From NCBI GenBank assembly GCA_964187785.1, contig OZ076409.1, forward strand, positions 31,746,001-31,810,000: 64,000 nucleotides of DNA, given 5' to 3'. Positions 488 to 49,228 of this stretch are shown here, one piece after another. This DNA is from Amphiscolops sp. MND2022. Taxonomy: Eukaryota. The notes beneath the pieces are model-generated. The model was not told the DNA's origin. It saw only the letters and a program-made list of their open reading frames with translations, and did not search any database. Every line of letters begins with the position of its first letter. The first letter of the stretch is position 1. Made by a program: the position numbers and the translations under genes.

Positions 488-773
488 GTAAGATTTATTA
501 CAGAAAAACTATCGGTGTTTGCCGCTTTTAAAACCACTGAGAGCTTTTAAAATCAAATTCCAAATATTGATATGTGATTCACGAATCGCGCATCACGTAT
601 GTGTCTGTTATAAAAACTAAAACTAGCATTCATCCATCTCCAATAGCTTAGTGTTTATAATCGAGTCTAACGTTAAGGCCTAGAGGGAGTGTTTGGGGTT
701 CACTTCTAACCAACGTCCCACAGGCTTTGTTATAACTTACTATAACTTACAATCATTACTTAGTGATCGTAAG

Positions 774-4465: not shown

Positions 4466-4499
4466 CCTAGTATAAATATATAAATGTAAAGCTGCTTTT

Positions 4500-4820
4500 T
4501 TAAAAACTATTAGGTGTGTGAGATATAAAACATATAAACAATACGCTGCACAATAACTATCATTTTTCTGAATTTGATATTTTGAATAGATACCTTCATT
4601 AATATGGTTTGTTATGTTTACTGGAGGAGGGCAGCCATATGAAATAAAAAGTACTCGTTGATAAACATAACTAAGATTTTCCTTTAGTTGGGTGTAAATT
4701 GACTACCTGAAGTAATGGTAAACTTATCAGCTCTCATGTATATTCCACACGGATCCATGATTATGTCTAAGATTTCTTTAATTTTTACATTAGAAGTTGC
4801 TGCGTGTTCTATTCCATATT
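4500..4820 (-). pseudogene. Adenain-like cysteine protease remnant (copy 1)
   Basis: VNLHPTKG..MFINEY..SYGCPPP..YQIQKNDSYCAAYCLY, homologous to the copies at 9845-10450. The 5' end is interrupted by a Helentron-type insertion at ~4821. Confidence 0.7.
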
Positions 4821-5367
4821 TTTTAGTCGGCGCTTTTCGAAGAAAAACGCAGACTATAGTAGTGACTTTTTTTTTAAGACCAACGAACTGACAGATTTTA
4901 TAAAGAGTTATAAATAGCTAAGCTGACTTCACTGCACTAACAGTAACTGCAACGCTAGCTATCACTGCTGGCACTTGGCATAGAGGTTAAATAAGCTTTT
5001 TAAGGTCTGCCGAGCAGAAGGACGTGGGTTCGAGTCCCGTCCTTGATCAATTTTTTTGTGCAGGTTTTTCGGCTTTGTGAGACTTTTTTTGCAAATTTTT
5101 TTAATGTCTCCAAAGGGTCCACCCTTCATTTTTTTCTATTTTGCATAAGAATGGATGTTCAAAACCTCCCAAAGGGCCCCTTCTACAATTTTTCGGCACT
5201 ATGCGACTTACCGGAGACCAAAAAATTTCGAAAAAAATTCAAAATTCGGATTTTTTTAAAATTTTTCCTCACGCGGGTACTGTAGAAGAGAATACTTGAC
5301 ACTTTGAAGTCCTTTTGCTATTTTTGAGCCTTAGATATGGCGCCGCTTGGGCCGTTCCCGGCTTGTT
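4821..5367 (+). mobile_element. Helentron-associated non-autonomous element (HINE/DINE-1-like, family B)
   Basis: Starts tttt-AGTCGGCGC with a 5' stem-loop. Ends with a GCGCCG(A)CT sub-TIR, GCCGTTCCCGGC hairpin and TTGTT. Inserted in a T-run without TSD (compare intact protease copy at 10405-10430). Confidence 0.75.
4970..5048 (+). other. tRNA-derived Pol III promoter-like segment inside the HINE
   Basis: A-box-like TGGCATAGAGG (4976), B-box GGTTCGAGTCC (5027) and a T-arm hairpin. No proper acceptor or anticodon stems. Confidence 0.55.
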
Positions 5368-5849: not shown

Positions 5850-8200
5850 TGCATATTTTTTAGTGTCTGTATGATCCCTTTTCATAATTATGTTTGATGT
5901 TAGAGTTGAAGCAGTATTGCCGCTTCAGATCAAACGACCGCCAAAAATAAATGTCCACTTTCGATGTTTTACACTGAAAATATGCTTTCGATGTTTGTTT
6001 GTTGACCGGCAAAATGGCTATTTTTGATGGTTTTCGCTGAAAAAGTGTGATATTATGCTTGTGTTTGGCGGCTGTTTGATCTAAGGAGGCGTTTCTCCCG
6101 CTACTCAAACAAATTCGTTTGATATACGTTCTTTGTCGTATTTATTCACGCTAAAATGTTCATAATGATCCACAATGCCTTTAAAGCTAAACTTAGATTG
6201 TCTGTGAAGTATTTTTGTGTTTCTGTGTGGGATATGGGTTCTAAGTTCACACGGTCACGTATATTTTCCATAGTCTTGTTGTATGTTATCATCCGAGAAA
6301 GATAATCTTTCAAAATCTCCTGTTGGCAAATACTGCCTCATGGCCCATCCATATAAAATGTTAGCATCTATGTAAAGAATCTGTGTACCAACACTCGAAT
6401 ATATGTACCTGTCACCTAAAACTACTATTTCCGCCACGTATGTTGTTTTCTAGTAATAATGTGTTTATCTTTGATATGATCTGAAACAATTTTTGTTAAT
6501 CGTAATCCTACTTTCCAGGTATAGCCTGGCAGTAAATAGCTGTATAAAGGGGAAATTGTATGTTTTTCAGTACACGTTTTTACAAAGTTTTCAAACACGT
6601 CTGCTAGTAAGAGGACATCACACTTCAGATATAACAGTTAGCTGTTGCCCATTTGTCAGTTTATACTTCTTAATTGTTGAGTTAGTATGCTCTATATCTT
6701 TGTCACCAGCAAATGACTCAGTTAGTGTTGACCAACAGCTTTGTTTAGTTAGGTGTAATTCTTGATTCATGTTTTGTAAATTCAAGTATTCATATGGATA
6801 GGCTAGTTTTTGGTTTAGCAATTCATCACTAAATTCAGATGAATCCATAATCGGGAACTCATTTTGATTCTCAACTAATTTTTCCGGACTTGAACCTAAA
6901 AATCTGTACGAATCTAAAAACCGTAAACAACCCACTTGTACTGAAATATAGTTTTGCATACTTTTTGGAAGTATTTGATTTTTTAATCCCAATGCGTGTG
7001 CTTTTTGTTAAAAGGTGTGTGTGATTCAATTATCAATTAAAAGCATGTGATTCAAATATCAAGTGACGGTCATATCCACTAAAGTTGTGGAAAAACACTG
7101 GAACGAAACATGATTTACCTTGGGAAATATTTAAATTACATGTATTACAAGCTGCTTCTCTGTCTTTGCCAGTAAGTTGATCATGATCTCTTACTTTATG
7201 AAATGGTTTTTCACACAGCCAGCACTCACTACTTTGCTTGAATTGTTCTTATTCTTCAGGGAAATTTGTATTACTATACTTTGTTTAAAATACTCACCAC
7301 ATGTTTGTTGTAATTGTAACATTTGATCAACAAACCAGTTTCTGCAATTTGTTCCAAACTTATCCAGGTATTGGTTTCCTTTTGGTGATATTAAACTATA
7401 ACCAAGAGCAATTGGAATTTGTTTGAATAAAACATTATCACTATCAGTAATTTGGTTAATACATTCGATATCTGCATTCACTCTATATGGTAAAGGCACT
7501 TTCATGTGGTGGTCTTCAAACACAATCTTGTCTTTCCAACTAAACCCAATATTAACTGGTTTTTGTTGTATACATCTTTCTATATGATCGGATAAAACTT
7601 GTTCTGAACTGAATGCAATTATACATTATCATATGGGGGTCTATTAATTAACATGTGTAGTTTGGTTATTAGGCAATAGTGATTTTCATACAATAATAAG
7701 GCTTTGTGGCTCGGTATAGTTAGTAATAATATGAACAGGTGACAAAACGGACCCAATGAGTTCAAAGACAATTATTTTCAAATTGTTTAATCGTTCGAAT
7801 TTAGGAATATCCTTGATGCGCATAGGAAGTTCTAAGTTTTGTATATTCAACGCAGATATTTTGGTAGAATAACTTGTTGGGTTTTGTTTTGTGTTACTGG
7901 ATACTTTTGACCTCTGATGCACCATAAGAAACAAAAAGTTCTGTGTATTGTAAATTAAGAATTGATTTAGAGTTTTTATATTTCTTAGGCAATTCGATAT
8001 AACTACTTGCCGAGATGTCTCGTGTTCTATAAAATTCAGTTACGACTTCTGTATAATACAATCAAACACAAAACCAGATCCTTCTAGTTGTTCATCATCT
8101 ACACACTTTAACATCTGCTGGTGAATATCGTTATTTATTCCATAGTTATACATCCTATTTGATTTTATCCATCTATTCAATACTTTTCCGTTTTTAAAAC
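5850..8200 (-). pseudogene. Protein-primed family B DNA polymerase (Polinton/adintovirus-like), decayed
   Basis: QLEGSGFVFD, LPMRIKDIPKFERLNNL, ADIEC (ExoI), RDHDQLTGK..AACNTCNL (endonuclease VII-like), FFHNFSGYD (ExoII), LRFLDSYRFL, YPYEY and YIDANILYGWAM (motif A), in the correct order with many frameshifts. Confidence 0.85.
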
Positions 8201-10450: not shown

Positions 10451-11699
10451 TTTATTTAGAAAACCTCGTTCTTTTGCAAGTTTTGTGATAATTGATGTTT
10501 TTACCTAATAATGGTAAAAATAATTTTGTAGTTTTTGTTGTGTTTGCTTAAACTTGAGCGTTCATTCAGATAAATACTCCAACATTCATCTTTATAATGA
10601 AGAACTATTTTATTGCGATCAAACTTTTTGATTACTGGGGCGAAGATATCTTTAGCTATTCTTTAGGTTCGATATTCTTTATTTATTTGGAAATTATCTG
10701 TTTAAATTTTTACGCAAATCTTGAATGAAGTTTTGAAATGAAAAAAGAAGCCGGTTGTTTTTCATTTTCATAAAAAGGTGTTCCCGGTACCCAATAAAAT
10801 AATTGATGTCGACATACTCCTACCTTTTACTTTGATTGACAGTTAAACGTTGCTCATGTGATGGAGTTGAGCTGAACTAACTAGTCGATAAATAGCTTGT
10901 CCAAAAATGGAAAAAAATGTTTACGAGGAGGGAAATGCCCTTTCTCAAAGAGGGCTAGTTTACCGACCGAATAGCGGGAGGAACATGCGATAGAGATCTG
11001 CCCCAGGCATCGGTTTCAATACCCATCAACTACGCAGTAAAAATAAGAATATTCAAATAGTTCATTCAGTAACCTTTTTTTCTAAAAATTGAAAGTTCTT
11101 CTTTGACGGTGATCATTCACTGCGCATGAAAGTGAAGTCATTCCTATCTCACCGAAATTGAAATGAATCACATAGAGACTAGTTGATTTTCATATCAGCC
11201 CTTATAGATATTTGATGTATGACTCGGTCTTCCTCCTTCCGGTGCTCTTTGCGTCCTCCAGGTTGGCCTTCATAACCAACCGCTAATCAAGTACTGGCAT
11301 GTCGCTTCGCTTCACTCTCTTTAGGCACTAGGGGTATGAAAACAAAGCTAATTACATTATAGTAATTAGTTCAATGTTACGTTAGTTTCTCTGTGCAGCA
11401 CACAAATTTAACTGGATTCTTTTCTATTTCAAATTTCAGCCCATCAGAAATACTTGAAACCCTTTTTCGGCCCAGTAGTTTTTTTCACTGTCAAACAATT
11501 GAGGCGTTTTTAGTCGGCGCTTTTAGTGAAACAAAAAATGCCTGACTCTTACACGGACCTTTCTTATCCAGACCTTACACCGGAAAGCCCACTTTTTACT
11601 GAATTTCTCTTGGCCTTCCTACCTTACTAGAATGCAATTTCTGGTACTTCTAAAGGGTACGTCTTTCAATTCATTGCTCTCACGAAACACAACATTATT

Positions 11700-11722
11700 T
11701 GGTGCATTGCGACCAGGGAATT
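11700..11722 (+). promoter_or_regulatory. Primer-binding site, tRNA-Gly-like
   Basis: TGGTGCATTG follows the LTR end after a short spacer and is complementary to the 3' end of tRNA-Gly (..CAATGCACCA). Confidence 0.6.
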
Positions 11723-14700
11723 ATCAGATATTCACAGCAAAGATGACAAGCAGATACGAAAGCAGAAGTTTGGATCAACTCAAAAGATCACGTTCAGCAA
11801 TCAGTGGTTTGATCACCAAAAACAAAGCTCAAATCGAGACAATTTTGACACAAGAAATTGCCGATATCGACACAGCTAAAATTAGTTCCTTGAAAGGGCT
11901 ACGGGAAAAGCTCGAAGAACGGCTAGCAGATTCAGCTCATCTGAATGCAGCTATCTTAGAGAAAACACCAGATGGAGACGCCGCAGTGGAACAAGGATAC
12001 GTAAACGCAGAAGAATTTGAAGAGAGAATTCGAACACTAATCAAGACAATAGACAATTTCCATCAGCAATTGGAAACGCCAGACACAGCACTGGTCACCG
12101 CAATCGCAGCTACTACTTCCTCGACGGGTACTGCCTCGGGAACAGGACATTTGAAGATGCCGAAATTTGACGGGAATACACGAAATGGGTTCCTTTCTAT
12201 GAACAATCAATTTATCGCCTCTGTGGATAGCAACAGCTCCATTCCGGATATACAGAAGTTCAACTACTTGAAGTCAGCACTTTCAGGCGAAGCTCTGCAG
12301 TTAGTAGCGCATATACCTCTTTATACTTCGAACTATAAGGTTGCCTTGAAATCATTGCGAGAAAGATACAATATAAAACGGCTAATTATCAATTCTCACA
12401 TTGATAAAATCGTGCAATTGAAGCCAGTAGTCAATGAATCAGCCGTTGAATTGCGAAAATTGATGGTCGTCTTTGAAGAAAATTTGATGACATTGGACGC
12501 TTTGAACGTCAAAGGTGGAGATCCATTTTTGATTCGATTTCTTTGGTGAAAATTAGACGAAGAATATCGAAAAAAATGGGAATTACACTGTCCTGGTACT
12601 AATTTGGAAACGTTAGACGAGTTCAAGGATTTCATCAACAAGCGTGTTCGCGCCTTAGAGTCATACATCTACCCCTCAACTCAGAATAAGTTCCCAAAAA
12701 ATAACGTCATTCTCAAGAGAAATTCACCGCCAAAAACGCACTTTCCGGCTTCACAAAGTTCCAAGGCCGCAATTGAAACTTGCCCACGCTGTAATGAAGC
12801 TCACAAGCTCTCCATGTGCAAAAAATTCGAGTCATTGAATGTCAAGGATAGAAAAAATGTTGCTTACAACTCCAAGCTTTGTTTCAACTGTCTATCATCT
12901 CGACACGTTACAAGAGACTGTAAGTCCAAAAGTTCATGCAAAAAATGCCAAGCCAGGCACAATACGCTTCTACACATTGAACCCCGCTCCAAAAACGCGG
13001 AGACGTCCAACTCAGTTGTTTTGGGGCATCAGGGGACATTTTTTTCGGCAGGAGTTTTGCCAACCGCAATAGTCACAATTGAAGATCAGGCCTCTAACAT
13101 TCATACTTGTCGAGCCCTACTTGACACAGGCTCTCAAATAAATCTCATTAGCGAGGAAGCAGCTCAGTGAATGGGGCTGAAACGAGAAAAACTGTCTTTG
13201 ACAGTCAATGTAGTTGGAGACATCTCAAAAACTCACAATTCAGGACTTGTTCGGTTGCATCTCAAGTCCCAAAGTTATGGAAAATCGATTTCTACACAAG
13301 CTTTCGTCCGGCCCAAGCTAACGCAGAATGTTCCCAGCAGAACGTTCCTCATAGACGGTCTTTTACATACGAAGACAGTTGAACTCACCGATCCAACTTT
13401 CAACAAGACAGGCTCAATTGATTTGATCTTGGGATCCGAAATCATAGAGGATATTTATCTCGATGGAAAATTCGAGGAACCGAATGGTCTCAAATTTCGC
13501 AACACAATTTTCGGTTGGGTTGCCTCTGGCAAGCATCCGCAAGGTTACAGTCCATCCTTCAAAACTTTCCTTTGCATGATAAACATTTGATCTGAAGAAA
13601 TTCTTGGAGTTAGAAGAACTTCCACCCGCAGAGAAGTTCACACAAGAGGAAATAGATTGTGAAAAACATTTCAAGGATACTACCAAAATAGTGAACAAAA
13701 AGTTCACAGTTCAAATGCCATTCAAAGAAAATTCCCAAAAACTTGGAGATACATACGTTCAAGCAAAAAGACGATTGCTCAGTCTAGAAAGACCACTTCA
13801 TGCTAATGACAAACTGAAGCAAGATTATACAGGTTTTGGGAATGAATTTATAACTTTGCAGCATTTACAGAAAGTTCCTGAAGAGGAATACGAGATGCAG
13901 TCAGAAAAAGTCAATTTTCTACCGCATCATTGTGTCCACAAAGAAGATTCCACAACAACCAAAGTCAATAGTTTTTCATGGTTTCGCCAAACCCACTTCA
14001 GGTGTTCCACTAAATGACACTCTCATGGTTGAACCAATGATTCAACAGGGTCTGGTTTCAATTTTGATAACATTCAGACTTCATCAAGTCGCACTTTCGG
14101 CCGACATTGCAAAATTGTACAGACAGATCGCACTCAGTAAAGAAGCACAAGACTTCCATAGAATTCTTTGGAAAGAAGATCCCTCGAAGCTAATAGAACA
14201 ATTTCGCATGACACGTGTTACATACGGGATAGCCTCGTCCGCATTCCATTCAACCAGGTCATTAGTAGAAGTTGGAAATTTGTGCAATAACAAAGAAATT
14301 GGACACTCGATAAATTTTGACTTCTATGTCGATGACTATCTTTCTGGAGCGGAAACTCTGGAAGATGCAAGACAAAAGGTACACGATATTTGCACTCAAC
14401 TCAAGCAGTATGGTGTGGACCTCCAAAAATGGGCCTCCAGTCATAGTGACATCATTGTAGAATTGCCGCAACATCTCCGAGAAAGTTCAGATGAAAAAAT
14501 TCTTGGATCAGAATTACAATTACTCTAGGAATATCTTGGAAGTCAAATCTCGACAGTTTCATATTCCACTCTAAATTTTCAGACACTTCACAAATAACCA
14601 AACGCAAGCTCTTGTCTGAAACCGCGAAACCAGTTGGTTGGTTAGGACCAGTAGTCATTCAGTAATACTTCAAAAGCTTTGGACACAAGGTGTCGGTGGG

Positions 14701-14951
14701 ATGACATATTAACAGCCGCAACATAACAGTGGATTGAAATGAAATCTAACAAGACTTGTTAGCTCTACAAGACTTCAAACTTCCGCGTTGCATAGTACCT
14801 TCTTCAAACTTGTAGATGTACAATTTCATCTTTTCACGGGTGCATCAGAATCAGCATACTCAGCAGTTGATGTGAATGAGTTCATCAGCACGAATCTAGT
14901 AGCAGGAAAAACTCGCGTTGCTCATATTAAAGCATTCTCTCTTGTGGTGCA

Positions 14952-15932
14952 CATTACAGTGCACAGGCAAGCTTTTCGCTGATTTTCGTGGAATCCGGGA
15001 CACGAAAATTGAGAAAAGTCGTGGAATCCAGGACAAAATTTCTCTTTGATGTTAAGCGTTTCTTGGATTCCACGACAGTGCTTGTCCTGGATTCCACGCC
15101 AACACTGCTGCTATAATGACACTTTTGCCGCTGCTCTCTGATTGGTACGCTGATTTTGAATAATCTTTTTATTGGTACCAATAAATTATTTATTATGACT
15201 GGTACCAAAAATGAAGCAAGTCATCAAATAATGGCAGATTGTGATGATCTGGCAGTTTGTTCAAAACTGGTACTAAACTTGAAAATACGAATATTTGTGT
15301 AATATAATATTCTTTTTGCATGATCATTATTAGAAAGGCAGAAGAGCTTGAATTAAATCAGTTTATATCAAAGCAAATTGTTTTGATTGACACGAAAAAT
15401 CCAAGAAGTATGAATAGAGATACTCGTGACTGGTACCAAAAATGAAGCAAGTCATCAAATAATGGCAGATTGTGATGATCTTGCAGTTTTTTCAAAACTG
15501 GTAATAAACTGAAAAATACAAAAATTTTGTGTGATATTGGTGTGATTGTCTGAATCATTTTGAATTAATATACGAAAAGTAGTGCATAATATCATGTTTG
15601 TTTAGTCATCCACTTGAATTCAATTCAAACAAGAAATGCCGCGTATCGCGTCCAGCATAAAGTCGTGGAATCCAGGAAATTTACGATTTCTGCAATCTGA
15701 TTGGTTCATTTCGGAAAACTTACGTTTTTGTGGAATCCGGGACACCGCTGCATGCCGACAGTTCGTACAGCTAAGCATATGTTACTGGAATCCAGGACTA
15801 AATCCGTGGAATCCGGGACAAATGACGTAATTTGCCAATTTTGCACGGTTAAAGGTATGGTCTTGGAATCCACGATATTGAACGCACTATGCTGCGCTTT
15901 CAGCAAATAAGGCTTGCCTGTGCACTGTAATG
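14952..15932. mobile_element. Non-autonomous TIR DNA transposon (CACTA/CMC-like) inserted in BEL pol
   Basis: TIR CATTACAGTGCACAGGCAAGC / GCTTGCCTGTGCACTGTAATG. Removing it restores ..CGAHLGTKL of pol. Many subterminal GTGGAATCCRGGA motifs and an internal ~110-bp direct repeat. Confidence 0.75.
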
Positions 15933-17434
15933 CACATCTTGGAACAAAACTTTTGACAAAGGTTTTAGCAGTAATGAAGATATCTGAGTTTTAAAAGATC
16001 GAATTTTTTGGTTGGATAGACGCAACAATAGTTCTTCAATGGTTAGCACAGCTGCCACGTACATGGACAACGTTTGTAGCAAACCGGGTATCTGAGATAC
16101 AGCAAACTTTGCCAAGTTCACATTGGAATCATGTTCGATCAACTTTAAATCCAGCTGATCTTTCAAGAGGTTCAAGGTTCACAGACCTCAAGGTATCCGC
16201 GCTCTGGTGGAATGGGCCAGATTGGCTTGCCATGCCATCAGACACTTCGCAAAAGACACCTCTAGTTGTAGATTCATCAATTCGACACAAGATCACAGAA
16301 GAATGAAACAGAAAGCCACGCGAAGACAATCCACCAGAAACAGTAACAACAAATCTATCTACAACAGTAACACCAATTTTTGATGAGAATGTCTACTCAA
16401 CATTGCATAAGCTATTTCGAGTGATTGCTACAGTCAAAATAGCCATTTCCAGGTTCAAGAAAGACAAAATTCTTAGTCAAATCACATCACAACTACTACA
16501 ACAGGCAAAATTGCATTTTCTCATCTCTCACCAAACCACACATTTTCACGAGGAATACAGCCTTCTACAAGCACAAATGGAATTGCTCAAAACAAGCGAA
16601 TTAATCAATCTCTGTCCATTCTTCGACACAGAAACAGACACCATTAGAGTCAGAGGACGACTTTTGCAAGGTAATTTTCTTGAAGAGAAAAAGTTTCCAT
16701 TTCTAGTCGAAGCCAATTCAAACTTCGCAAACTTGATACTACAACATTTTCATGAAGCTACCCTTCATGGTGAGGGGCAGCTCACTTTGAATACCAGTCG
16801 CGAAGAATATTGGATTCCCAAAGGAAAAAGTCTTGTCACAAATATTGCGTCAAATGTAGCTGATTCTTAAGCAATGACGATGTAAACATAGTAGCAGAGC
16901 TGAAAACAGCCAATGGAAACCTCATCCGACCTTTTATCAAACTCAAGAGGCTGCCATTTACGTATGGTGAACCACAGAGCAATAGAGGACAACTTACAGA
17001 TTGATTTTACTTCGATTTTCATTTCAAATTTCATGTTCGCAAAAATTCCCAAAAATTGACTTCCGCAATTTTTGTCCCGTGTTGCCCCGTTTGATGTTAC
17101 ACGCATAAATTATGTACTGTTACCTCACTAGGTGTCTCATTCATATAGGTTACACAGCTCAAAAAGGTTATATCACTGATGTAATTGCATTTTCAACCAA
17201 AAATTTCAGGTTTTTTGAATAACTTTTCTTGAATTTTGGTTAAGTTTATTTAACTTCTCCCAATTTCTGGACAAATTTATGGGTACAGCAGTATTCTACA
17301 GCTACATGGGTTTCTTTCTACAGTTTATGACACTATCTGTTCTACAACTTATGACTTACTTGCATGGAGACAGTCTGCACACCAGTACTATCACATGCCT
17401 TTATTCGGCTTATCAAAGTATTTACCTGCAATAG

Positions 17435-18420
17435 TCAACTTTGCTGACTTCCACCTGGCTGCTGCCTTCGACAAGCAACCGCGGTGTACTTATTAGCGAG
17501 ATTGAGTTGCTGCTGCACCCTCTCCTCGTCCGCAGACATCTCCACAGAGAACATTGGACAAATGCGGCCCTCCTCCATGTCTGTCCAGACTGAGTGCAAC
17601 CAGCCATAGGGAAGGTAGAGAGACTGTCCAGGCTCCAGAAGGCCCCCGAACACCTGCTTGGCCATCGTCCTCTTCAGACTCTGCAAATAGCGAAGGGTTT
17701 TACTTGCCGCCTCTCTACGATCCCTTCTCAGGCGATCCAGCTCTCGCGCGACATTTGTCAGGTTGCACGTCATCCACAACTTCCTTCCTCTTAGCAATGT
17801 CAGAAATGCATCACCTTCCTCGTGAAGATCATGATAAAAGGCTCTGAAACTGGACTGTTCGACCAGAATCAGCAATCCTCGCCTTTCCTCCACCACACTC
17901 GGAAGGGGCTGCCGCAGTGCAACTGACAGCTCACAGCTTCATCCAGTCAGAACCTTGACGGCAACTCCAAGGCGCTCTGCACCTCTCTCCCTCTCCTCAC
18001 CGACACTGGGAGGTCCTCGAAGCTGCTAGCAGACAGCAGCGCCTCCTATAAGCATCAAGTACAACAGATATTTGCAATTTCATTCATCTTCAGTTCGAGT
18101 ACAGTTCTGGACACCTTTTGTTTATATGGTTCATTGTTTCAATAAGGAGGAATTCTAACCGAATCCGCTTCGGGCAGCTACCCGACGCTCGAGGTCAGCA
18201 AAGCAGGTTCCTCGCGACGCTCCAGAACCTCCTCCACCCCTCGAGCAGACACCCTTGAGAGATCGGAGCCCCTCAACCACAGAAGAAACTCGTCGAAGGT
18301 CGGCAAGGCTTCCTTCTTTTCATCTCTTCTGGGCCTTTTGAAAGACTCCTGAAACTCGGGCATCTTCGGCTGCCTCCCACTTCTCTTTCTTCTCTCCTCG
18401 GATCCCATGTATTCTGCCAT
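17435..18420 (-). pseudogene. JmjC-domain (2OG-Fe(II) oxygenase) gene, copy 1; exons 18420-18160 and 18045-17435
   Basis: F(Y/H)HD..FLTLLRGRKLW..LEPGQSLYLPYGWLHSV is the JmjC signature. Phase-0 114-bp GT-AG intron at 18159-18046. Minus-strand AATAAA at 17400-17405. Lesions: TAG in exon 1, a 1-bp deletion and TGA near 17940-17955, and HHD changed to YHD. Confidence 0.85.
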
Positions 18421-18475
18421 TACGAATCTGAAATTATTTGAATCGTCCCTGACGGATCCTTCAAGGTGGGCGGGA

Positions 18476-18532
18476 TGTTGAGGCTAGACTGTTTTCTCTC
18501 TATTCAATTCATTGCTCTCCCGAAACACAACA
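18476..18532 (+). repeat. BEL/Pao 3' LTR (57 bp)
   Basis: TGTTG...CAACA directly after the PPT. Its last 30 bp match 11665-11694, which precede the PBS. Confidence 0.8.
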
Positions 18533-18941
18533 ATTTTTTTCGAGTTCTCCTTCGATTTTTCAGCACTCTGCGACTTATCAAAGACATTTGGTGAAAACTT
18601 TTCCCCAGTGGTTTTCTGTTAATTAAAATATCGTTTTCATTATTTCCGAGATAGAAAACTAAGTTATGCAACTTTTTTCAGCCGAATTGTTTCAGCGATT
18701 CGATTGCTTACTAGAAAATTCAGATAATTTGTTTGGCAGTGAGTATAAGCGTAAGGTTCAAATTTGTCAAGCTGCCGACGACAGGTCGTTTCTCGTGCGA
18801 TGAAATAGGCTAGTGTTAATTATGCTTCCGTACGCAGAGTTATTGAGATGAAGCGAACGATTGATAATTATTCGTTCGCCGAGAGCTTCGTCTGCATTCA
18901 AGTTCCAATGCGAACTTCCGTCTACGGTTAGTAGTTACATA

Positions 18942-19815
18942 TTTTTAGGATTCGGAAAAAAATTTCGACTACTTATGCAATCGTGCTGTTTTTTTTTGTT
19001 TTTTTTCTCCCGACATTTTCATGAAAATTCAAATTTCTCAAAAACTGTCTATACGATTTTCATGAAATTTTGCACAGTCTTTCTACACCCACAGGGGCCC
19101 CTGCGTGTGCAAAGGCATCAAAATCGTATGACTGGGATGTGAGAAACATAGCCAAAGATAGCCCAAAAATGGCCAAAGAACAGCCATTTTTCGACTTTTT
19201 TCGTTTTTCTCAAAAACTGTGCATACGATTCGAACGAAATTTTCTACAGTTATTCTACACCATTTTAGAGTCCTATATGTGCAATGGCATCAAAATCGTA
19301 TGGCTGGGATGTGAGAAACATAGCCAAAATTAGCCCAAAAATGGCAAAAAACAGCCATTTTTCGACTTTTTTCGCTTTTCTCAAAAACTGTCCATACGAT
19401 TCGAACGAAGTTTTCTACAGTTGTTCTACACCATATTAGAGTCCTATATGTGCAATGGCATCAAAATCGTATGGCTGGGATGTGAGAAACATAGCCAAAA
19501 TTAGCCCAAAAATGGCCAAAAAACATTTATTTTTCGATTTTTTTTTCGATTTTCTCAAACTGTCCATACGATTCGAACGAAATTTTCTACAGTCATTCTA
19601 CACCATGTTATGGTCCTTTATGTGCACTTTCATTAATTTCGTATGGCTGGGATGTGAGAAACATAGCCAAATTTAGCCCAAAACTGGCCAAAAAAACAGT
19701 CATTTTTCGATTTTTTTTTCGATTTTCTCACAAACTGTTCATACGATTCGAACGAAAGCGAGTCAGAAGGAAAAAGACTTAAGCCGACTCCTTTACCGCA
19801 TATACGGCTCTGGTT
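18942..19815 (+). mobile_element. HINE/DINE-like element family A with internal ~171-bp tandem repeats
   Basis: 5' ttttt-GGA(g/t)TCGG head. 3' CCGACTCC sub-TIR, CCGCATATRYGG hairpin and CTCTGGTTTT. About 4-5 internal tandem units. Confidence 0.75.
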
Positions 19816-20293
19816 TTTAATCCAAGAAGAATTAAAGGCGGTGTAAACTGGTGCAGTGATTAATTGTGCCCTATATAATGGTTAAACATATATGGTTCTA
19901 TTATTGAACATGAAAGCCTAAAAGTAGAACTAATACTGTGCCCCGCATCGGCCTATTTCCAAATACCGTCTTAAGGTTGACATCTGCGATCTTTTGTTAG
20001 TCCTCTGGAATTAATGAGAGTTTTCTCAATATCTGAGGAAACGACCCGTTTTTTTCGGCACGATGGTACTTTTTTTGGGAAAAAAATGATTCGGTCAAAG
20101 GGTACCACTTTATTTTTGAAGAAGTTCTTGGCTTGGAAAAATTGGTTTGCCAGCTTAAAGCTCCTTTTTTGGCAATATGAGATTTTTCCGACGAAATTTG
20201 GGATTTCTGATGTTTCCAGTTAGGAAAAACATTTTCGAGTCTTATGCGTATTCCTCAGTAGTATCTTTTGGCTCAGTAATTGTGATATAATTT

Positions 20294-21268
20294 TGACTTC
20301 CACCTGGCTGCTGCCTTCGACAAGCAACCGCGGTGTACTTATTAGCGAGATTGAGTTGCTGCTGCACCTCCTTCTCGTCCGCAGACATCTCCACAGAGTA
20401 CATTGGACAAATGCGGCCCTGCTCCACGTCTGTCCAGACTGAGTGCAACCAGCCATAGGGAAGGTAGAGAGACTGTCCAGGCTCCAGAAGGCCCCCGAAC
20501 ACCTGCTTGGCCATCGTCCTCTTTAGACTGCGAATAGCGAAGGGTTTTACTTGCCGCCTCTCTACGATCCCTTCTCAGGCGATCCAGCTCTCGCGCGACA
20601 TTTGTCAGGTTGCACGTCATCCACAACTTCCTTCCTCTTAGCAATGTCAGAAATGCATCACCTTCCTCCTGAAGATCATGATGAAAGGCTCTGAAACTGG
20701 ACTGTTCGACCAGAATCAGCAATCCTCGCCTTTCCTCCACCACACTCGGAAGGGGCTGCCGCAGCGCAACTGACCGCTCACAGCTTCCTCCAGTCAGAAC
20801 CCTTGACGGCAACTCCAAGGCGTTCTGCAACTCTCTCCCTCTCCTCACCGGCGCTGGCAGGTCCTCGAAGCTGCTAGCAGACAGCAGCGCCTCCTATAAG
20901 CATCAAGTACAACAGATATTTGCAATTTTATTCATCTTCAGTTCGAGTACAGTTCAGGACACCTTTTGTTTATATGGTTCATTGTTTCAATAAGGAGGAA
21001 TTCTAACCGAATCCGCTTCGGGCAGCTACCCGACGCTCGAGGTCAGCAAAGCAGGTTCCTCGCGACGCTCCAGAACCTCCTCCGCCCCTCGAGCAGACAC
21101 CCTTGAGAGATCAGAGCCCCTCAACCACAAAAGAAACTCGTCGAAGGTCGGCAAGGCTTCCTTCTTTTCATCTCTTCTGGGCCTTTTGAAAGACTCCTGA
21201 AACTCGGGGATCTTCGGCTGCCTCCCACTTGTCTTTCTTCTCTCCTCGGATCCCATGTATTCTGCCAT
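20294..21268 (-). pseudogene. JmjC-domain gene, copy 2; exons 21268-21008 and 20893-~20294
   Basis: Intact HHD..K..H ligand set (RAFHHD, GRKLW, GWLHSV). Same 114-bp intron and same exon-1 TAG as copy 1, a 2-bp deletion near 20525, and last codons lost at the duplication junction. Confidence 0.85.
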
Positions 21269-21323
21269 TACGAATCTGAAATTATTTGAATTGTCTCTGA
21301 CGGATCCTTCAATGTGGGCGGGA

Positions 21324-21380
21324 TGTTGAGGCTAGACTGTTTTCTCTCTTTTCAATTCATTGCTCTCCCGAAACACAACA
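21324..21380 (+). repeat. Duplicated BEL/Pao 3' LTR
   Basis: Near-identical to 18476-18532, preceded by gtgggcggga. Confidence 0.8.
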
Positions 21381-21790
21381 ATTTTTTTTCAAGTTATCCT
21401 TCGATTTTTCAGCACTGTGCGACTTATCAAAGACATTTGGTGAAAACTTTTTCCCACTGGTTTTCTGTTAATTAAAATATCGTTTTCATTATTTCCGCGA
21501 TAGAAAACTAAGTTATGCAACTTTTTCTAGCCGATTTCTTTCAGCGATTCGATTGCTTACTAGAAAATTCAGATAATTTGTTTGGCAGTGAGTATAAGCG
21601 TAAGGTTCAAATTTGTCAAGCTGCCGACGACAGGTCGTTTCTCGTGCGATGAAATAGGCTAGTGTTAATTATGCTTCCGTACGCAGAGTTATTGAGATGA
21701 AGCGAACGATTGATAATTATTCGTTCGCCGAGAGCTTCGCCTGCATTCAAGTTCCAATGCGAAATTCCGTCTACGGTTAGTAGTTACATA

Positions 21791-22651
21791 TTTTTTGGAG
21801 TCGGAAAAAATTTTCGACTACTTATGCAATCGTGCTGTTTTTTTTTGTTTTTTTCTCCCGACATTTTCATGAAAATTTCAAATTTCTCAAAAACTGTCCA
21901 TACGATTTTCACGAAATTTTGCACAGTCATTCTGCACCCGAAGGGGCCCCTGCGTGTGCAAAGGCATCAAAATCGTATGGCTGGGATGTGAGAAACATAG
22001 CTAAACTTAGCCCAAAAATGACCAAAAAACAGCCATTTTTCGACTTCTTTCGATTTTCTCAAAAACTGTCCATACGATTCGAACGACACTTTTTACAGTT
22101 ATTCTACACAATTTTAGAGTCCTATATGTGCAATGGCATCAAAATCGTATGGCTGGGATGTGAGAAACATAGCCAAAATTAGCCCAAAAATCGCCAAAAA
22201 ACAGCCATTTTTCGACTTTTTTCGCTTTTCTCAAAAACTGCCCATACGATTCGAACGAAATTTTTTAGTTATTCTACACCATATTAGAGTCCTATATGTG
22301 CAATGGCATCAAAATCGTATGGCTGGGATGTGAGAAACATAGCCAAAATTAGCCCAAAAATGGCCAAAAAACAGCCGTTTTTCGACTTTTTTCGATTTTC
22401 TCAAAAACTGTCCATACGATTCGAACGAAATTTTCTACAGTTATTCTACATTATATTAAAGTCCTATATGTGCAATGGCATCAAAATCGTATGGCTGGGA
22501 TGTGAGAAACATAGCCAAAATTAGCCCAAAAATGGCCAAAAAACATTCATTTTTCGATTTTCTCACAAACTGTTCATACGATTCGAACGAAAGCGAGTCA
22601 GAAGGAACAAGACTTAAGCCGACTCCTTTACCGCATATGTGGCTCTGGTTT
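21791..22651 (+). mobile_element. HINE family A, duplicated copy
   Basis: GGAGTCGG...CCGACTCC sub-TIRs. Repeated ORF starts at 22133, 22303 and 22475 give a 170-172 bp unit. Confidence 0.75.
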
Positions 22652-23883
22652 TTAATCCAAGAAGAATTAAAGGCGGTGTAAACTGGTGCAGTGGTTAATT
22701 GTGCCCTATATAATGGTTAAACATATATGGTTCTATTATTGAACATGAAAGCCTAAAAGTAGAAATAATACTGTGCCCCGCATGGGTTTATTTCCAAATA
22801 CCGTCTTAAGGTTGACATCTTCGATCATTTGTTGGTCCTCTGGAATTAATGAGAGTTTTCTCAATATCTGAGGAAAAGACCCGTTTATTTCGGCACGATG
22901 GTACTTTTTTTCGGAAAAAATGATTCGGTCAAAGGGTACCACTTCATTTTTGAAGAAGTTCTTGGCTTGGAAAAATTGGTTTGCCAGCTTAAAGCTCCTT
23001 TTTTGGCAATATGAGATTTTTCCGACGAAAATTGGGTTTTCTCATGTTTCCAGTTAGGAAAAACATTTTCGAGTCTTATGCGTATTCCTCAGTAGTATTT
23101 TTTGGCTCAGTAAATGTGATATAATTTTGACAATAGTGTCCTTTTGCTTATTGAAAGCTGCTTTCGAACGAATTTGTCTGCTTATGGGTTTTTTGGCGCT
23201 GTGAGACTCTGGAAGAACAATTTTTTCAATATATCATATATTCGGTTGATGTGTTCAGTTCAGAAAAAGCTATTTTTGAGTCTCGAGGCTACCCCTTCGG
23301 GTAATTTTGGCCCCCGAATATCTAGCTTTTTTCGAACCTTGAGCGGTGTGCCGACATGGGCCGTTCCCGGCTTGTTTTTCTAAAGGTATATGTATGAAAT
23401 ATCGTAGTGTCATGGCGGCTGTTAGGTCAATATCTCATAAGCAGCTGGAGGAGATCCACTTGTTTTGATATAATTTGAACTTGCATAAAACGCAAAATTT
23501 GGGCGATGTATTTGTTCGTCCCTCTTAGAGTTGCTGGAACTTCGGCTTCAATGCTTGTCCTTCTCAATAGCATGCTCAATTTTGATGTAAACTCACTAGC
23601 TCTGGTTTGGTGTTGTCAAATTTTCATTGCTATTGCCAACATTTTTGTATGCTTGCAAAGGAAGAGGAAAGACCAAAGAGTCCCCCTTTGGAGTTTGTCG
23701 GCACTGTGCGACTTTCGAAAAAAATCGTTTCAAATTTTTGATTTTAGCAATGACGACGCGTTGTTATAGTGAGAAAAACAATTATTCCGTAGTTAGTTTG
23801 AAAGTTTGAAAGTTTGATTCCGTAGTTTGAAAAAAAAACGTAATTTGAAATTCCGTAGTTAACAATTCAAACGTTTTGTTCAG

Positions 23884-25039: not shown

Positions 25040-26085
25040 CTAAGAACTACTTGAAGAGCCATCCTGAAAGCTATATGTCAACAAGCCATCTTCACACATG
25101 TGAATTAATCGAAACGGCTGATGAAAATCATAACAAATTGGTTTTTTATTTTATCCATTCATTCTTCCTCTTTATATTGATTTCTCAATTTTATTCATAA
25201 TGCTGAGACATTTCGATAGCAATTTTCATCTACATTCCGGTACCATCGTAGGATGGAATGTTGAATTGTTCAAAACAAAATTCATTCAAACACCGGTCTA
25301 AACAATTTGTATTGAATAGATTTCTTTGCACTCTGTTCACTTAAGCACCTTTGCATTTATCATTTCGTGGTTCCATTTGCTTGGACACGCGGTACTTGAA
25401 TGCAAATACCTATTTCTTTTCTTCTGTCCGGTTCCTTTGATCCATTTCCTTTTGTTTACCAAAGTAATTTGAGTTCGTTTGTTTTCTAGTAACGTAGAAT
25501 ATAATTCAATTGGAATTCAATGTTTTTCGGTCCGAGGATCAATGTACTTCCAGAGAATTCAGTGTCATTTCACCGCAAAACCATTTCATCCCAGAATCTT
25601 TCACCACACAACCCCCCCACCTTTTAATTATTCAAATACGTCTCAGGTTAATTACTAATCACTTAATTACATCAAAGTGCTAAAAGAACATCGCGTTCAA
25701 TTTGATAAACCAGTTAGATAAACAAATGATGACTGCTACGTGAATCACGAAAACGGAACAAAAATTTCACTCTGAAGTAATCGATCCGAGGATCAATGTA
25801 CTTCCAGAGAGTTCAGTATCATTGTAATACGGTTGATTCCGAATGACCTTTACCGAGTTTCGGTCTAGACTCTTTACTCAGACAGCCTAACAAGTTGTTT
25901 ACTAACAAACTTGAAATCATGAAATTACCATTTATATACATTTGATATATACTTTGGATAAAGATCAGTCGTTCAAAAATACAGTTTATATTTTATCGTT
26001 TTGTCCTATCTTAGTATAGATTAGTAATACAACATGGCGCAGTCAGCCAATTTTTAACAAAAAATTACAACGAACTCTTAACAAA

Positions 26086-27402
26086 ATGGCAGAACGAAAC
26101 ACAAGACCAAACCTAGAAGCAAAAGCCGCAGACGGAAACCCGGTTTTCACACCGAAACAATGGCTAGAGCGATTCCGGCAATTCTGCAAACGGGAACATA
26201 AAATAGATATCGCACCAATACTAAAAGGTGAAGAAATTACGGAAACCAATTGGACCGGAAAAGAACAAGCCATACAAGAAGATTTCATATGGGGTGTGGG
26301 ACCGGAAGCACTCTATCAGATAACACGGGCCGAATACAAAACGGAACCCGACAGTATAAAAATAAAAGACCTAATCCGGTTATTCACCGAGTTCTACATG
26401 CCGAAAAGAAACACTTACCACAACCGAGGAGACTTTTTCTGGGCGAAGCAGACCGAAGATGAAACACCCGAAGAATTCTGGAGACGGTTAATCGAAATCG
26501 AAAAGGAATGCAATATCACTACAATTTCGGCCGAAGAACTACTAATATCAAAATACATGACTGCAATCACCGATAAAAAGTTACGGGACAAAATAATGAA
26601 AGAAAAAACTCTGGAGATGAAGAAGATAATCGACCTAATCAAACAAAATACATACGAAAAGAAAAATAAAAAGAATACAATACCAGAAGCTTTAATATCG
26701 ACGAAAGAAAAACACATAATAAAAGAAGAGCCGATACAAAGAATGGAAAGATTCGGAACAAGACCGAAAAATAAAAACTTCGGTAACCGACCGTGCAGAT
26801 TTTGTAGTGCTCCAAATTGGACACCATTACACAAATGTCCAGCAACAGATGCGAACTGCAACAAGTGCGGTAAGAAAGGACACTACGCGAAAGCATGCAG
26901 ACAGAAATTCAACAACAACCGAACAGTGAAAAGACTAACCGAAGACGAAATGAACGAACCGAACGAATCATCATACGAGTCAGAAGAAAGCATACACCAC
27001 ATGAAAGAAATAAAGAAAATTGAAGAAACGAACAAACACTACACCGCGAACGTGGAAATCAACGGAATAATGAAAGAATTCATAATTGACACCGGATCTC
27101 CAATATCAATAATGCCTCCGGATAAACGAATAATGAACCCAACCGAACTACAGAAAGTATCTAACCGATACCAAGATGTTAACAAGAATGAAGTAAAATT
27201 TCGGGGAAAAATTCCGATAAACGTTGAATACGAAAATAACAAACAGAAAATGGAAGTTTTGATTACCGAAAGAACCGACATCACACCTTTGTTAGGTATG
27301 GACTGGATGAAAACGTTCAAATTAACTGTCGGGAAGATACAATTGGCCGAAAACAACCAATCAGAAAGAGAAAATATTCGGAAAATTTCAAGACCTATTT
27401 GA
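26086..27402 (+). CDS. Gypsy gag-protease (open up to a frameshift before RT)
   Basis: CRFC..H.C plus CNKCGKKGHYAKAC knuckles, and protease FIIDTGS. Confidence 0.85.
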   Translation: MAERNTRPNLEAKAADGNPVFTPKQWLERFRQFCKREHKIDIAPILKGEEITETNWTGKEQAIQEDFIWGVGPEALYQITRAEYKTEPDSIKIKDLIRLFTEFYMPKRNTYHNRGDFFWAKQTEDETPEEFWRRLIEIEKECNITTISAEELLISKYMTAITDKKLRDKIMKEKTLEMKKIIDLIKQNTYEKKNKKNTIPEALISTKEKHIIKEEPIQRMERFGTRPKNKNFGNRPCRFCSAPNWTPLHKCPATDANCNKCGKKGHYAKACRQKFNNNRTVKRLTEDEMNEPNESSYESEESIHHMKEIKKIEETNKHYTANVEINGIMKEFIIDTGSPISIMPPDKRIMNPTELQKVSNRYQDVNKNEVKFRGKIPINVEYENNKQKMEVLITERTDITPLLGMDWMKTFKLTVGKIQLAENNQSERENIRKISRPI

Positions 27403-30400
27403 AAACAACAAAACAATAAAAGATACCGAAATAAATATCCAGCTTAAACCGGGACACTTCCCGATCAAACAAAAAGCAAGACCGGTACCACTACATCTAC
27501 AAGAAGATGTCGAAAGAGAATTGAAGAAATTAATCCGAACCGGACATCTAGAAAAAATCAATGATGTAGATGAAGACTGTTTTGTATCACCGGTAGTGAT
27601 CACAGTGAAAAGTGATAAATCGGTAAAGATAGCACTCGATTCACGAAAACTAAATGACAGCTGCATAATAATGAGACCACACGTGCCGAATATGGAAGAA
27701 CTGTTGAACCAAATTTCGGTGGAAATTACGCGCGACCGGACAGTACAATTATTTATGTCAAAGATCGACTTGGAAAATGCATATGGACAAATGAAACTAT
27801 CAGAAGAAACAAGCAGACAATGCGTATTCGCACTAACCGGAGGAAATTTCAGCGGATATTACCGATTTAAAGAAAGGGTTTTACGGTCTTGCCGACATAC
27901 CCACAATTTTCCAGGAGAAAATTGACCGAACACTTGAATATTGTACACCGGCATGGTTGGACGACATAATCATAGTAACACGGGGAAGTAAACAAGACCA
28001 CGAGAAGAAATTGTTTGACGTCCTAGATAAATTAGAAAAAGCCGGATACCGGGCAAGCAAAAAGAAATCCGAATTCTTCTTGAAGGAAACAAAATGGCTC
28101 GGACATTAAATTAATGAAAACTGGATAAAACCGAACGATCAGAAAGTGGAAGCAATACTAAATTTAAAACCACCGGAGAACACAGAAGACCTGAAATCAT
28201 TTTTCGGTGCTATACAATATATGGCAAAATTCCTACCGAAACTTTCGGAACAAACAGATTGACTGAGAAAATTATTGAAAAAGAACGAACCATGGATATG
28301 GGGACCGGAAAAAGAGACGGATTTTAACCAAATAAAAAGATGTTAACCGAAGGTCCATGTTCAGCACACTATGCGAAAGACAAAGACAACATGGTGACAA
28401 TCGATGCCAGTAAAACCGGACTCGGAATAACACTATGGCAAAAACAGGACAACGGAAGCATAAAACCGATTGCATACGGAAGCAGATATTTAAATGATAC
28501 CAAAAAAACTTACTCAATCGGTGAATTGGAATTACTAGCAGTAGTTTGGGGATTAGAAAAGTTCCAATTTCATCTTTACGGAAAGAAAGTGTACCTATAC
28601 ACAGACCACCAAGCACTAGAACCACTAATAAAACGAAACCGATGCAACGAACAATACAGTGCAAGATTAACTCAGTGGCTAGACCGATTGGCACATTTTG
28701 ACATCGCAATACAACATATCGCGGGAAGCAATTTGAAATTCACGGACTACCTCAGTAGAAGTCTGGTAGGGGGAGCTACACCGGAAGATAATTACGATGA
28801 AGAATATGTAATTAACATATTATCCGAACAAGCGAAACTGAACGCAAGCGAAACTGAACGCAAAATACGGACAATTATTCGCCGACCAATCAGATAACAG
28901 CAAACGCGCGACCGAAACAAAGAGCGACAGATCGGAAAGCAAAATTGAACAACAAAACAACCAATCACAAACGATTAGAATATTCGAGAACAAAAACGGC
29001 GTGAACAAAATAAGCCGAAGCGAGAAGAATACATCCGGGCAGTCCGATATTAGCGCCTTAAAATCAAGTTACTCTTTGAAACATCGAAAGATTACTCAAA
29101 AGAAGAATTTAAATCCGGAAACTACCGAAATGGATAGAGAACTTTTATCATTGGGGCGCAACAAGGGAAATCATGGAAATAATTCGGAAGAGAAATAAAA
29201 GCCCGGAGACACGCAGACTTGTTGAGCTGAGAAACAACCTATCGAGGCCGGGAACGCTGGAAGGAGATACGATCCGCACACACAACGGACAATATTCGCA
29301 CCAACTCGTCCAAATAAACTTAGCCGAGAAGAAATCGCGGAAATAGACGCGGAGCTGCTACAAAGAACAAATCGACTCGGGGGAGGCTACCAACCACTAA
29401 CCGAAGAAACTGCAGAGCCCGAAAACGCAGAAGAAGGCGAAATTGAACCCGAACAGCCGGGGACAGAGGAAGACAGTTTAATCCTGAGAGGAGACAACTT
29501 GCCAATAGTGGACCTGAGCAAATTCAACACAGAAGGAAAAGAGGCCCCCTACATCCAAATAAATCATATTGTGGGAAAGTTATCCGGAAACAAAAAGATA
29601 ACCGAAGACACAATAAAGAAAGCTGAATTCGAGTTCATGATGGACCTAAAGACCCTGATAGCAAGAACAGCCATCGACCCCGAACTCACAAGAGTTAGAA
29701 TCAGTATGAGACGGGAAGACAGAGAGGCAACTCCCGAAGGATACAAGCCAGTATTCGGAAAACTCTCTATTCGATGGGGACTTATATTTATGGATGACCA
29801 GATCGTAGTTCCGGTAGACCTCCGAAGACGACTATTCGACATCCTACATTGCGGTCATGCCGGTTTGACGAAGATGACAGCCGAAGCCAAAATTTTTTGG
29901 AGGCCGAACATTACCCGGGATATCGAGAATAAGGCAAAAGACTGCCCTGCCTGCCTCGCCTCAAGTAAAAATTTAAAATATCAACTACCGAACAGTCACT
30001 ACGGAAAATTGAAAACATTAACCGAACCGGGCCAAGAAATACAAATCGATTTTACCGGAAAACTCCATAACAAAAAAATAAACGGAGACGTACAAATCTT
30101 AATAGCGATAGATCGTTTTAGCAAATGGCCTACGGTAAAAACTTGCAAAACCACCGAAACGAAAGAAGTTATAAATTTCTTAATAAATAACTTTAATTTA
30201 TAAGGGATACCGGAAAAAATCAAATCCGATAAAGGGGGGCCTTTATCTCAAAAGAGTATAGAGAATTTTGCAAAAGCCGAAATATAGAAATCGAATACTG
30301 TACACCCCGCTTACATACGGGAAATGGAGCCGTCGAACGGGCGATACAAACCTTGAAAAATTTAATGCTAACCAATCTGGAAGAAGGAATCGAATTGAAC

Positions 30401-49109: not shown

Positions 49110-49228
49110 CCTCATCATTCTATCTGCTGGCTCACTCAAAACTAGTCACTACAGCTGAATGAAAGATAACCAATAACATGTTATCTTAAAGATAACCTGT
49201 TGAAAACATTTCAAGAATCCTGGATTCT

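Follow-up and report, generated by a model that had tools for sequence, protein, structure and literature searches.

Some of the described BEL/Pao retrotransposons have an env-like third open reading frame (ORF) on the sense strand, HBZ of HTLV-1 is an antisense gene from the 3′ long terminal repeat (LTR), and TET/JBP genes are linked to the KDZ transposons of fungi. Here, we describe a gene for a putative JmjC-type oxygenase, of the enzyme class to which histone demethylases belong, that lies in antisense orientation within a BEL/Pao element. It was found in a 64,000-nt stretch of DNA of Amphiscolops sp. MND2022 (contig OZ076409.1, positions 31,746,001 to 31,810,000; below, the window, to which all positions refer), where it occupies 17435-18420 on the minus strand as a two-exon gene. 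An earlier note, made from the letters of this DNA, had proposed that it is cargo captured by the element.

Orchid Ty3/Gypsy elements are reported to carry an ALKBH N6-methyladenosine (m6A) RNA demethylase domain (PMC9289625), retrotransposons with DNMT, MBD (in arthropod Copia), chromodomain, PHD, SET and SNF2 have been reported as well (bioRxiv 10.1101/2021.11.30.470311), and antisense additional ORFs are reported for plant Retand and other LTR retrotransposons (PMC7264820, PMC11963269). The main text of the bioRxiv article holds 0 occurrences of JmjC, and an antisense gene would not show up as a fusion in transposon-fusion tables. Our full-text literature searches, whose coverage stopped short of the fusion table of 10.1101/2021.11.30.470311, returned neither an antisense nor a JmjC gene described in BEL/Pao, nor a JmjC gene in any LTR retrotransposon. 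As a whole, the locus is best explained by a BEL/Pao family that has its own antisense JmjC oxygenase gene, a reading to which we assign a probability of roughly 0.85.

Results

The JmjC gene in complete elements

The genome was sampled at 51 loci, and the genome counts given here are lower bounds. Close copies and the window share a block that ends sharply at 16863 and 18488/18532, and ten-kb stretches around six copies revealed this block to be the 3′ portion of a full element; the JmjC gene is carried by all four of the loci L031-L034. Complete elements have LTR pairs of 200-244 bp with identities of 100% (L032), 99.5% (L034), 99.6% (L035), and 99.2% (L036). All four display TG..CA ends, perfect 5-bp target-site duplications (AATTG, GCATT, GGTAT, GTGAT), a primer-binding-site-like TGGTGC-type site, and a purine tract just within the edge of the 3′ LTR. 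They are assigned to BEL/Pao because the long frames of L032, L035, and L036 contain the full Pao domain set in Pfam (DUF1759, aspartyl protease, RVT_1, Peptidase_A17, Integrase_H2C2, rve, and DUF5641).

In each of the four complete elements examined, the JmjC gene is enclosed between the LTRs. Together with the target-site duplications, this means that the gene was integrated with the element, and the captured-cargo proposal therefore holds: the JmjC gene belongs to the transposing unit. Intact relatives of the window element are approximately 7.15 kb long (7152 bp in L032) with 200-bp LTRs, and the gene takes up about 1 kb of this (14%), in antisense orientation between the end of pol and the 3′ LTR. 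In three subfamilies, 50-56 nt separate the ATG of the gene from the 3′ LTR's inner edge.

Distribution and co-divergence with pol

A six-frame search of the 1.07-Gb genome with a 167-aa frame of the window gene yielded at least 151 matches; of 291 first-look candidates, 150 were scored, and about 96 of the 150 listed, counted by eye, are free of internal stops. A convergent BEL pol C-terminus, ending ~0.4-0.5 kb from the JmjC stop, is present at 26 of the 27 loci that scored best outside the window, and the single miss (L008) is truncated at the pol side. The same tail-to-tail arrangement was seen in nine of ten distant paralogues (23-44% identical to L019), with L041 as the miss, which brings the total to 35 of the 37 loci examined. 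The concern that other members of the family might lack the gene is thus removed by L031-L034 and by the 26 loci beside pol; some copies of the gene are intact (4 of 12 close loci).

At L041 (G000:C8:31641200-31645400), a 4.08-kb tandem array that lacks pol contains a JmjC fragment whose catalytic H, K, and H are replaced and whose identity to its L040 counterpart is 88%. On account of the array, the missing pol and the lost catalytic residues, a domesticated host copy was considered for this locus and rejected.

Over ten loci, pairwise identities are 22-61% for JmjC and 43-70% for the pol C-terminus. The two are correlated (Mantel r 0.70, p 1e-4) and delimit the same groups, and the gene occurs in several BEL/Pao subfamilies of the genome whose pol C-termini are this far apart. 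The pattern fits one old acquisition, followed by co-divergence with pol.

BEL/Pao elements are very abundant in this genome: the integrase C-terminal domain DUF5641 gave 6215 first-look candidates, all 150 scored passed the cut-off, and several matches lie in open frames of 1650-1770 aa. Five further BEL elements were picked by DUF5641 score alone and the 1.9 kb downstream of pol was inspected. A more diverged antisense JmjC gene was found in one of them, L047 (hhalign probability 96.8%; Pfam JmjC 24.0 bits at a cut-off of 24), while two have nothing in this interval. L048 has a 316-aa frame past BEL pol (477-1424, plus strand) with weak Exo_endo_phos matches (E 1.1e-4), which is probably a nested or adjacent non-LTR retrotransposon. 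In L050, a 349-aa open frame (143-1189, minus strand) lies antisense to and just downstream of BEL pol; it has no match in Pfam or the protein atlas and no likeness to the JmjC profile, and could be either another cargo or a frame that arose by chance.

Identity of the predicted protein

A 167-aa ORF of the window (17438-17938) matches Pfam JmjC_2 with an E-value of 4.5e-5 (23.4 bits, cut-off 22). A search for homologous proteins returned only three, and the protein-atlas clusters nearest to the L019 protein are JmjC-flavoured, which served as a lead only. Further comparisons were based on a family profile of 15 rows (alignment A2) and on a larger alignment of 81 sequences. Run against the PDB, the profile aligned with PHF8 (E 3.8e-4) over a stretch that begins ahead of the HxD motif, includes the GxK strand and reaches the distal His, and PHF8 and KDM7 (0.0085-0.012) were the only PDB sequences that it reached below E 0.01. 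Among 1.84 billion library representatives it reached 94 clusters at E≤0.001. Wherever one of the 77 clusters scanned with Pfam matched a family (E≤0.01), that family was JmjC, JmjC_2 or Cupin_8, except for P0075, and several of these relatives lie above the curated cut-off, e.g., P0044 (30.7 bits) and P0080 (31.1 bits). Library relatives from other organisms are at most 66% (P0005) and at most 42% (P0022) identical to anything in the Amphiscolops genome, and P0032 has no match in it. A metagenome scan with the A4 pattern gave 292 matches, none of which was confirmed as a relative.

AlphaFold2 modelled the protein from the 81 sequences with a predicted local distance difference test score (pLDDT) of 87.8 and a predicted template modelling score (pTM) of 0.82. 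The top 50 rows of a Foldseek search of the PDB with this model were all JmjC-type enzymes (E ~1e-8 to 1e-7), headed by JMJD5 and FIH. VIA-align ranked PHF2 first (Z 14.9, root-mean-square deviation 4.1, 224 residues aligned), then PHF8 (14.6), KDM7A of C. elegans (14.5), and KDM2A (14.3), followed by FIH and JMJD5 (both 13.7), with Z-scores of 12.9-14.9 over 183-259 residues overall. Residues 1-36 are predicted to be disordered, with pLDDT below 60 over most of them. No further Pfam domain (PHD, CXXC, F-box) was found in the 288-327-aa proteins of L032, L035, and L036.

At least 90% of the 81 sequences retain the putative metal ligands H161 and D163 as well as K179, and 13 of the 15 rows of A2 have the distal His (LHSV/AHSV/GHAV). 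K179, in the motif GRKLW, aligns with the Lys of GEKIF in PHF8 and would therefore be the Lys that binds the C5 carboxylate of 2-oxoglutarate (2OG). By its modelled fold and its ligands, the predicted product is a JmjC-type Fe(II)/2OG oxygenase of ~290 aa, and the JmjC or cupin assignment expected of profile and structure searches was returned as JmjC by the PDB profile, Foldseek, and VIA-align.

Three residues before the first metal-binding His, R158 of L019 is a nearly invariant Arg in alignments A2 and A3. PHF8 has a Thr at this place, which we take to be a 2OG contact, and the Arg suggests that the co-substrate may be held differently.

Selection and intact copies

Synonymous divergence (dS) could be estimated in 7 of 17 pairs, and the ratio of nonsynonymous to synonymous divergence (dN/dS) is 0.19-0.42 in six of them. 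Six sister-subfamily copies, all compared with the same reference L032, have pooled divergences of 0.089, 0.073, and 0.168 at codon positions 1, 2, and 3. These substitution patterns indicate that the JmjC gene is under purifying selection. The fold, the conservation of the ligands and the pattern across codon positions rule out a chance antisense ORF, which was also considered. The two-exon gene is fully open in 4 of 12 close loci outside the window and broken in the other eight, and open genes occur in copies with 99-100% identical LTRs.

The putative intron

The earlier proposal of an intron agrees with the alignments. The two exons of L032 (87 and 203 codons) abut without gap or overlap on the intronless paralogues L019, L035, and L036, and an unspliced read-through of the gene runs into a stop. 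Of 14 copies that hold the region, GT is present in 14, AG in 13, and a length of 114 nt in 11, so the stretch is a putative spliceosomal intron, judged from its sequence. The same phase-0 position is split in L037, L038, L039, L040, and L041, with boundaries GTAAA/GTAGG/GTGGG/GTAAG..YAG. In L043 (2558-3468) and L044 (2580-3507), the gene is unsplit at this position and split just before the strand that bears HxD, with boundaries GTAAG/GTAAT..CAG, and in L019, L035, L036, L042, and L045 it is unsplit. Since the intron is found in copies that have target-site duplications and identical LTRs, it passes through retrotransposition, and its persistence is what antisense placement predicts.

The copy in the window

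The window itself holds a dead, rearranged copy of the BEL/Pao LTR retrotransposon, the features of which are listed in Table 1. Its homology to full elements begins at 11664, the first 169 bp of the 5′ LTR being gone, and by comparison with the L032 element it lacks positions 1-169, 4492-5328 (the integrase core) and 6966-7106 (within the 3′ LTR). The second of these losses, an 837-bp deletion at ~16866, takes out the integrase core and most of DUF5641. The Pfam domain set of this copy comprises only DUF1759, RVT_1, and Integrase_H2C2, and its gag-pol also holds a trace of the aspartyl protease. A stretch of 987 bp in pol (14944-15930) is an insertion, because other copies of the element are without it; it contains direct repeats (15196-15305 and 15427-15537) of 91.9% identity. 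Both LTRs are remnants, and no target-site duplication is readable.

Table 1. Features of the BEL/Pao copy and its antisense JmjC gene in the 64,000-nt window (UTR, untranslated region).
Feature	Position	Strand	Basis or remark
5′ LTR end, ~31 bp	11664..11694	+	L032 LTR positions 170-200 match at 96.8%
Degraded BEL/Pao gag-pol	11695..16989	+	Pfam matches; mapped on the 7152-bp L032 element
gag DUF1759	ORF 11530-12549	+	Pfam
RVT_1	13854-14528	+	Pfam
Integrase_H2C2	16307-16870	+	Pfam
pol tail	16863 to ~16989	+	Map against the L032 element
Spacer from pol stop to JmjC stop, likely JmjC 3′ UTR	16990..17434	-	Sequence
AATAAA	17405-17400	-	Sequence, inside 16990..17434
JmjC exon 2	17435..18045	-	611 nt in window; 612 in open copies
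JmjC stop TGA	17437-17435	-	Exon 2
YHD (HHD in other copies)	17836-17828	-	Exon 2
Putative 2OG-type Lys of GRKLW	17782-17780	-	Exon 2
Distal His of LHSV	17596-17594	-	Exon 2
Putative spliceosomal intron, 114 nt, GT..AG, phase 0	18046..18159	-	Sequence
JmjC exon 1, 87 codons	18160..18420	-	Homologous to N-termini of intronless paralogues
ATG	18420-18418	-	Exon 1
Leader from LTR edge to ATG, 55 nt	18421..18475	-	Compared with L032, L034, L035, L036
Polypurine tract	~18462-18475	+ (element sense strand)	Within leader region
3′ LTR remnant, 57 bp	18476..18532	+	First ~13 bp and last ~45 bp of the 200-bp LTR
Partial JmjC gene duplicate and LTR remnant (copy 2)	20294..21380	-	Part of tandem segmental duplication

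On re-reading the sequence, the gene coordinates of the earlier note (ATG, phase-0 GT-AG intron, stop and downstream AATAAA) proved right, and so did its remark that the minus-strand gene is richer in GC (0.456 in 17001-18000 vs. ~0.40-0.41 in the pol region). The AATAAA is kept in 11 of the 16 copies in which the alignment holds the spacer region, and one more has ATTAAA. Exon 1 encodes a basic N-terminus (RRKRSGR, KRPRR). Of the polypurine tract and 3′ LTR that the note had placed beside the gene, both are present, the PPT-like run GGTGGGCGGGA lying directly inside the remnant at 18476-18532, but the LTR has been reduced to this remnant by an internal deletion of 141 bp. The note had also reconstructed the full ligand set from two local gene copies. 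HHD is indeed found in other copies, whereas window copy 1 reads YHD and both local copies are broken. An in-frame TAG at 18180-18178 is present in both, where other copies have TGG, and copy 1 has, besides the change of HHD to YHD, a further 1-bp deletion near 17954. The JmjC gene of the window is therefore nonfunctional.

Both local copies exist as described, yet they represent one insertion and its segmental duplicate. A head-to-tail tandem duplication (17445-20297 vs. 20294-23131) with a unit of ~2.85 kb and 95.2% identity over 2859 columns spans the JmjC coding region, the LTR remnant, flanking DNA, and a 172-bp satellite (19034-19757 and 21876-22561). As the unit carries flanking DNA and satellite, copy 2 is not a second, independent insertion. 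It has a 2-bp deletion and ends 10 nt short of the stop codon, so that the last codons and the 3′ UTR are lost.

Other elements in the window

A large Ty3/Gypsy-like element (40971-55399, plus strand) contains Retrotrans_gag, RVT_1, RT_RNaseH, and rve, and its region has a strong negative GC skew. Its 705-aa ORF at 50342-52459 matches the viral fusion glycoprotein family PF24664 (Monjiviricetes_fusion, E 4.7e-10) and is therefore an env-like gene. Arrays of a 329-bp tandem unit lie on both sides of the element (35386-39444 and 57372-60376). Retroelement remains with pieces of protease, RT_RNaseH, and Integrase_H2C2 occupy 26020-30203 (plus strand, A-rich), and an rve fragment lies at 1803-2339 (minus strand).

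Discussion

The findings on complete elements, distribution and fold suggest the following course of events for the antisense gene. Transcription would start within the 3′ LTR or at its inner edge, given that the ATG is only 50-56 nt away from the LTR, and would run against pol. In the window subfamily, one 114-nt phase-0 intron would be spliced out of the transcript, which would be polyadenylated at the AATAAA ~30 nt past the stop, before pol is reached. Because the gene is antisense, its intron would not be removed from the sense genomic RNA and would be copied into each new insertion. The disordered, basic N-terminus may take the protein into the nucleus, where it would oxidise a protein substrate; our best guess is that a repressive histone methyl mark is removed from the chromatin of the element, with hydroxylation of some other nuclear protein almost equally likely. 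Such an anti-silencing histone demethylation is plausible but unproven.

Several points weigh against the reading that the family has its own JmjC oxygenase gene, or against parts of it. Pfam support from single sequences is marginal (23.4 bits for the window ORF vs. the cut-off of 22, and 20.6 for L032), and the JmjC proteins of L035 and L036 have no Pfam match at E 0.01. The good AlphaFold model hinges on the 81-row alignment, the pLDDT being 35.8 with 13 sequences. Promoter, splicing, and polyadenylation are all deduced from the DNA letters. The structure and the PDB profile lean toward KDM2/7, while the first cellular library proteins are JMJD6- and JMJD7/JMJD5-like. Four of the five BEL elements picked by DUF5641 have no JmjC gene within 1.9 kb of pol, and the cargo is therefore clade-specific, not universal. 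With regard to selection, one pair has a dN/dS of 0.81 and 10 of the 17 pairs are saturated, and the six comparisons of codon positions, made against a single reference, are not independent. Finally, third codon positions, at 0.168, are more diverged than either the intron (0.091) or the 3′ UTR (0.103); constraint on element RNA or splicing signals and hypermutable third positions are possibilities here.

Concerning the activity of the predicted enzyme, a serious candidate, though short of an even chance, is a protein hydroxylase of the JMJD5/JMJD6/JMJD7/FIH kind that modifies a host factor or Gag/integrase and helps replication independently of silencing. A JmjC-only protein of ~290 aa without a reader domain is built like members of the hydroxylase group, the Z-scores of JMJD5 and FIH, which top the Foldseek list, differ from those of the KDM2/7 matches by only ~1, and the first clearly cellular matches of the profile are JMJD6-like (P0074, P0086) and JMJD7/JMJD5-like (P0085). 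The sequence profile and the structural ranking point the other way, as only PHF8 and KDM7 were reached below E 0.01 in the PDB and the top 14 VIA-align rows are PHF2, PHF8, KDM7A, and KDM2A; neither observation is decisive.

The removal of repressive histone methylation as a counter-silencing step is put forward tentatively. Its specific form, in which a KDM2/7-like demethylase is produced from an HBZ-like antisense unit in the 3′ LTR and erases methylation of the H3K9, H3K27 or H4K20 type, is possible, with the odds against it. In this form of the reading, the introns, gained and lost at two positions, would be kept through retrotransposition solely owing to the antisense orientation.

That the gene is a passenger, captured once, of no benefit to the element and now decaying, is improbable. 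Decay would agree with the pair at a dN/dS of 0.81, with the loss of H, K, and H in L041, and with the broken genes of eight of the 12 close loci and of both window copies, but breakage after insertion is expected of any element copy. Subfamilies with no more than 22-61% identity have kept the catalytic residues (13 of 15 rows) as well as the gene's place and orientation, six of the seven estimable pairs have dN/dS values far below 1, and copies with 99-100% identical LTRs hold open genes. It is very improbable that the protein acts non-catalytically by binding chromatin factors, in the manner of the fission-yeast JmjC protein Epe1, which is reported as a non-enzymatic anti-silencing factor (PMC7192584, PMC6624913): the predicted metal ligands and 2OG-binding lysine (H161, D163, K179), conserved in at least 90% of the 81 sequences, argue for retained catalysis. 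The chance that a host JmjC gene or nested transposon was juxtaposed just once to a truncated BEL element, as the truncation of the window element at both ends and a segmental duplication reaching from the JmjC segment into flanking DNA might suggest, is negligible, this reading being refuted by the four of four complete elements that enclose the gene between LTRs with target-site duplications, by tail-to-tail pol at 35 of 37 loci, and by the correlated JmjC and pol identities.

If the demethylase reading is true, the gene would be the first retrotransposon-encoded histone demethylase and would offer a directly testable case of an element that counters host silencing by means of an enzyme. The gene is compact (~290 aa), is present in copies with 99-100% identical LTRs and spans subfamilies of 22-61% identity, which suits evolutionary and biochemical work. 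Intronless, split at one position, or split at another, this one gene also provides a natural experiment on introns in retroelements.

Comparison with known systems

Among cellular enzymes, the KDM2/KDM7 group (KDM2A/JHDM1A, PHF8, PHF2, and KDM7A) gives the best structural matches, with Z-scores of 14.3-14.9 over 221-259 aligned residues, and its HxD, Lys, and His ligands align with those of the element protein. The latter differs by an identity of only 9-15%, by a total length of ~290 aa without PHD, CXXC or F-box, and by R158 where the PHF8 alignment has Thr. The JmjC-only hydroxylases (JMJD5, FIH, JMJD6, JMJD7, and TYW5) share the small single-domain architecture (Z 12.9-13.7), although their identity to the element protein is ~10%. 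To our knowledge, no JmjC-only hydroxylase is encoded by a mobile element.

The carrier resembles other BEL/Pao elements in its DUF1759 gag, Peptidase_A17, reverse transcriptase, H2C2-rve integrase, and DUF5641, and in its short LTRs with TG..CA ends and 5-bp target-site duplications. As in the orchid elements (PMC9289625), an LTR retrotransposon has gained an enzyme of the Fe(II)/2OG-dioxygenase superfamily, which in the reported case is thought to aid the element's own cycle. The orchid case, as reported, concerns a plant, Ty3/Gypsy, and an AlkB-type enzyme, and is the acquisition of a domain rather than of a separate, antisense, intron-bearing gene. The chromatin-related captures (10.1101/2021.11.30.470311) are similar in that elements recruit readers and writers, for which the authors propose evasion of host suppression, and dissimilar in being reported as in-frame fusions on the sense strand. 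To these readers and writers, an element-borne JmjC oxygenase would add an “eraser”.

With antisense retroelement genes such as HBZ and the Retand ORFs, the JmjC gene has in common its place on the minus strand between pol and the 3′ LTR, a start that adjoins the LTR, and an antisense position that lets an intron persist. It differs from them in its setting, a BEL/Pao element of an animal host, and in its predicted product, an enzyme of a known superfamily rather than a basic leucine zipper (bZIP) factor or an unassigned ORF.

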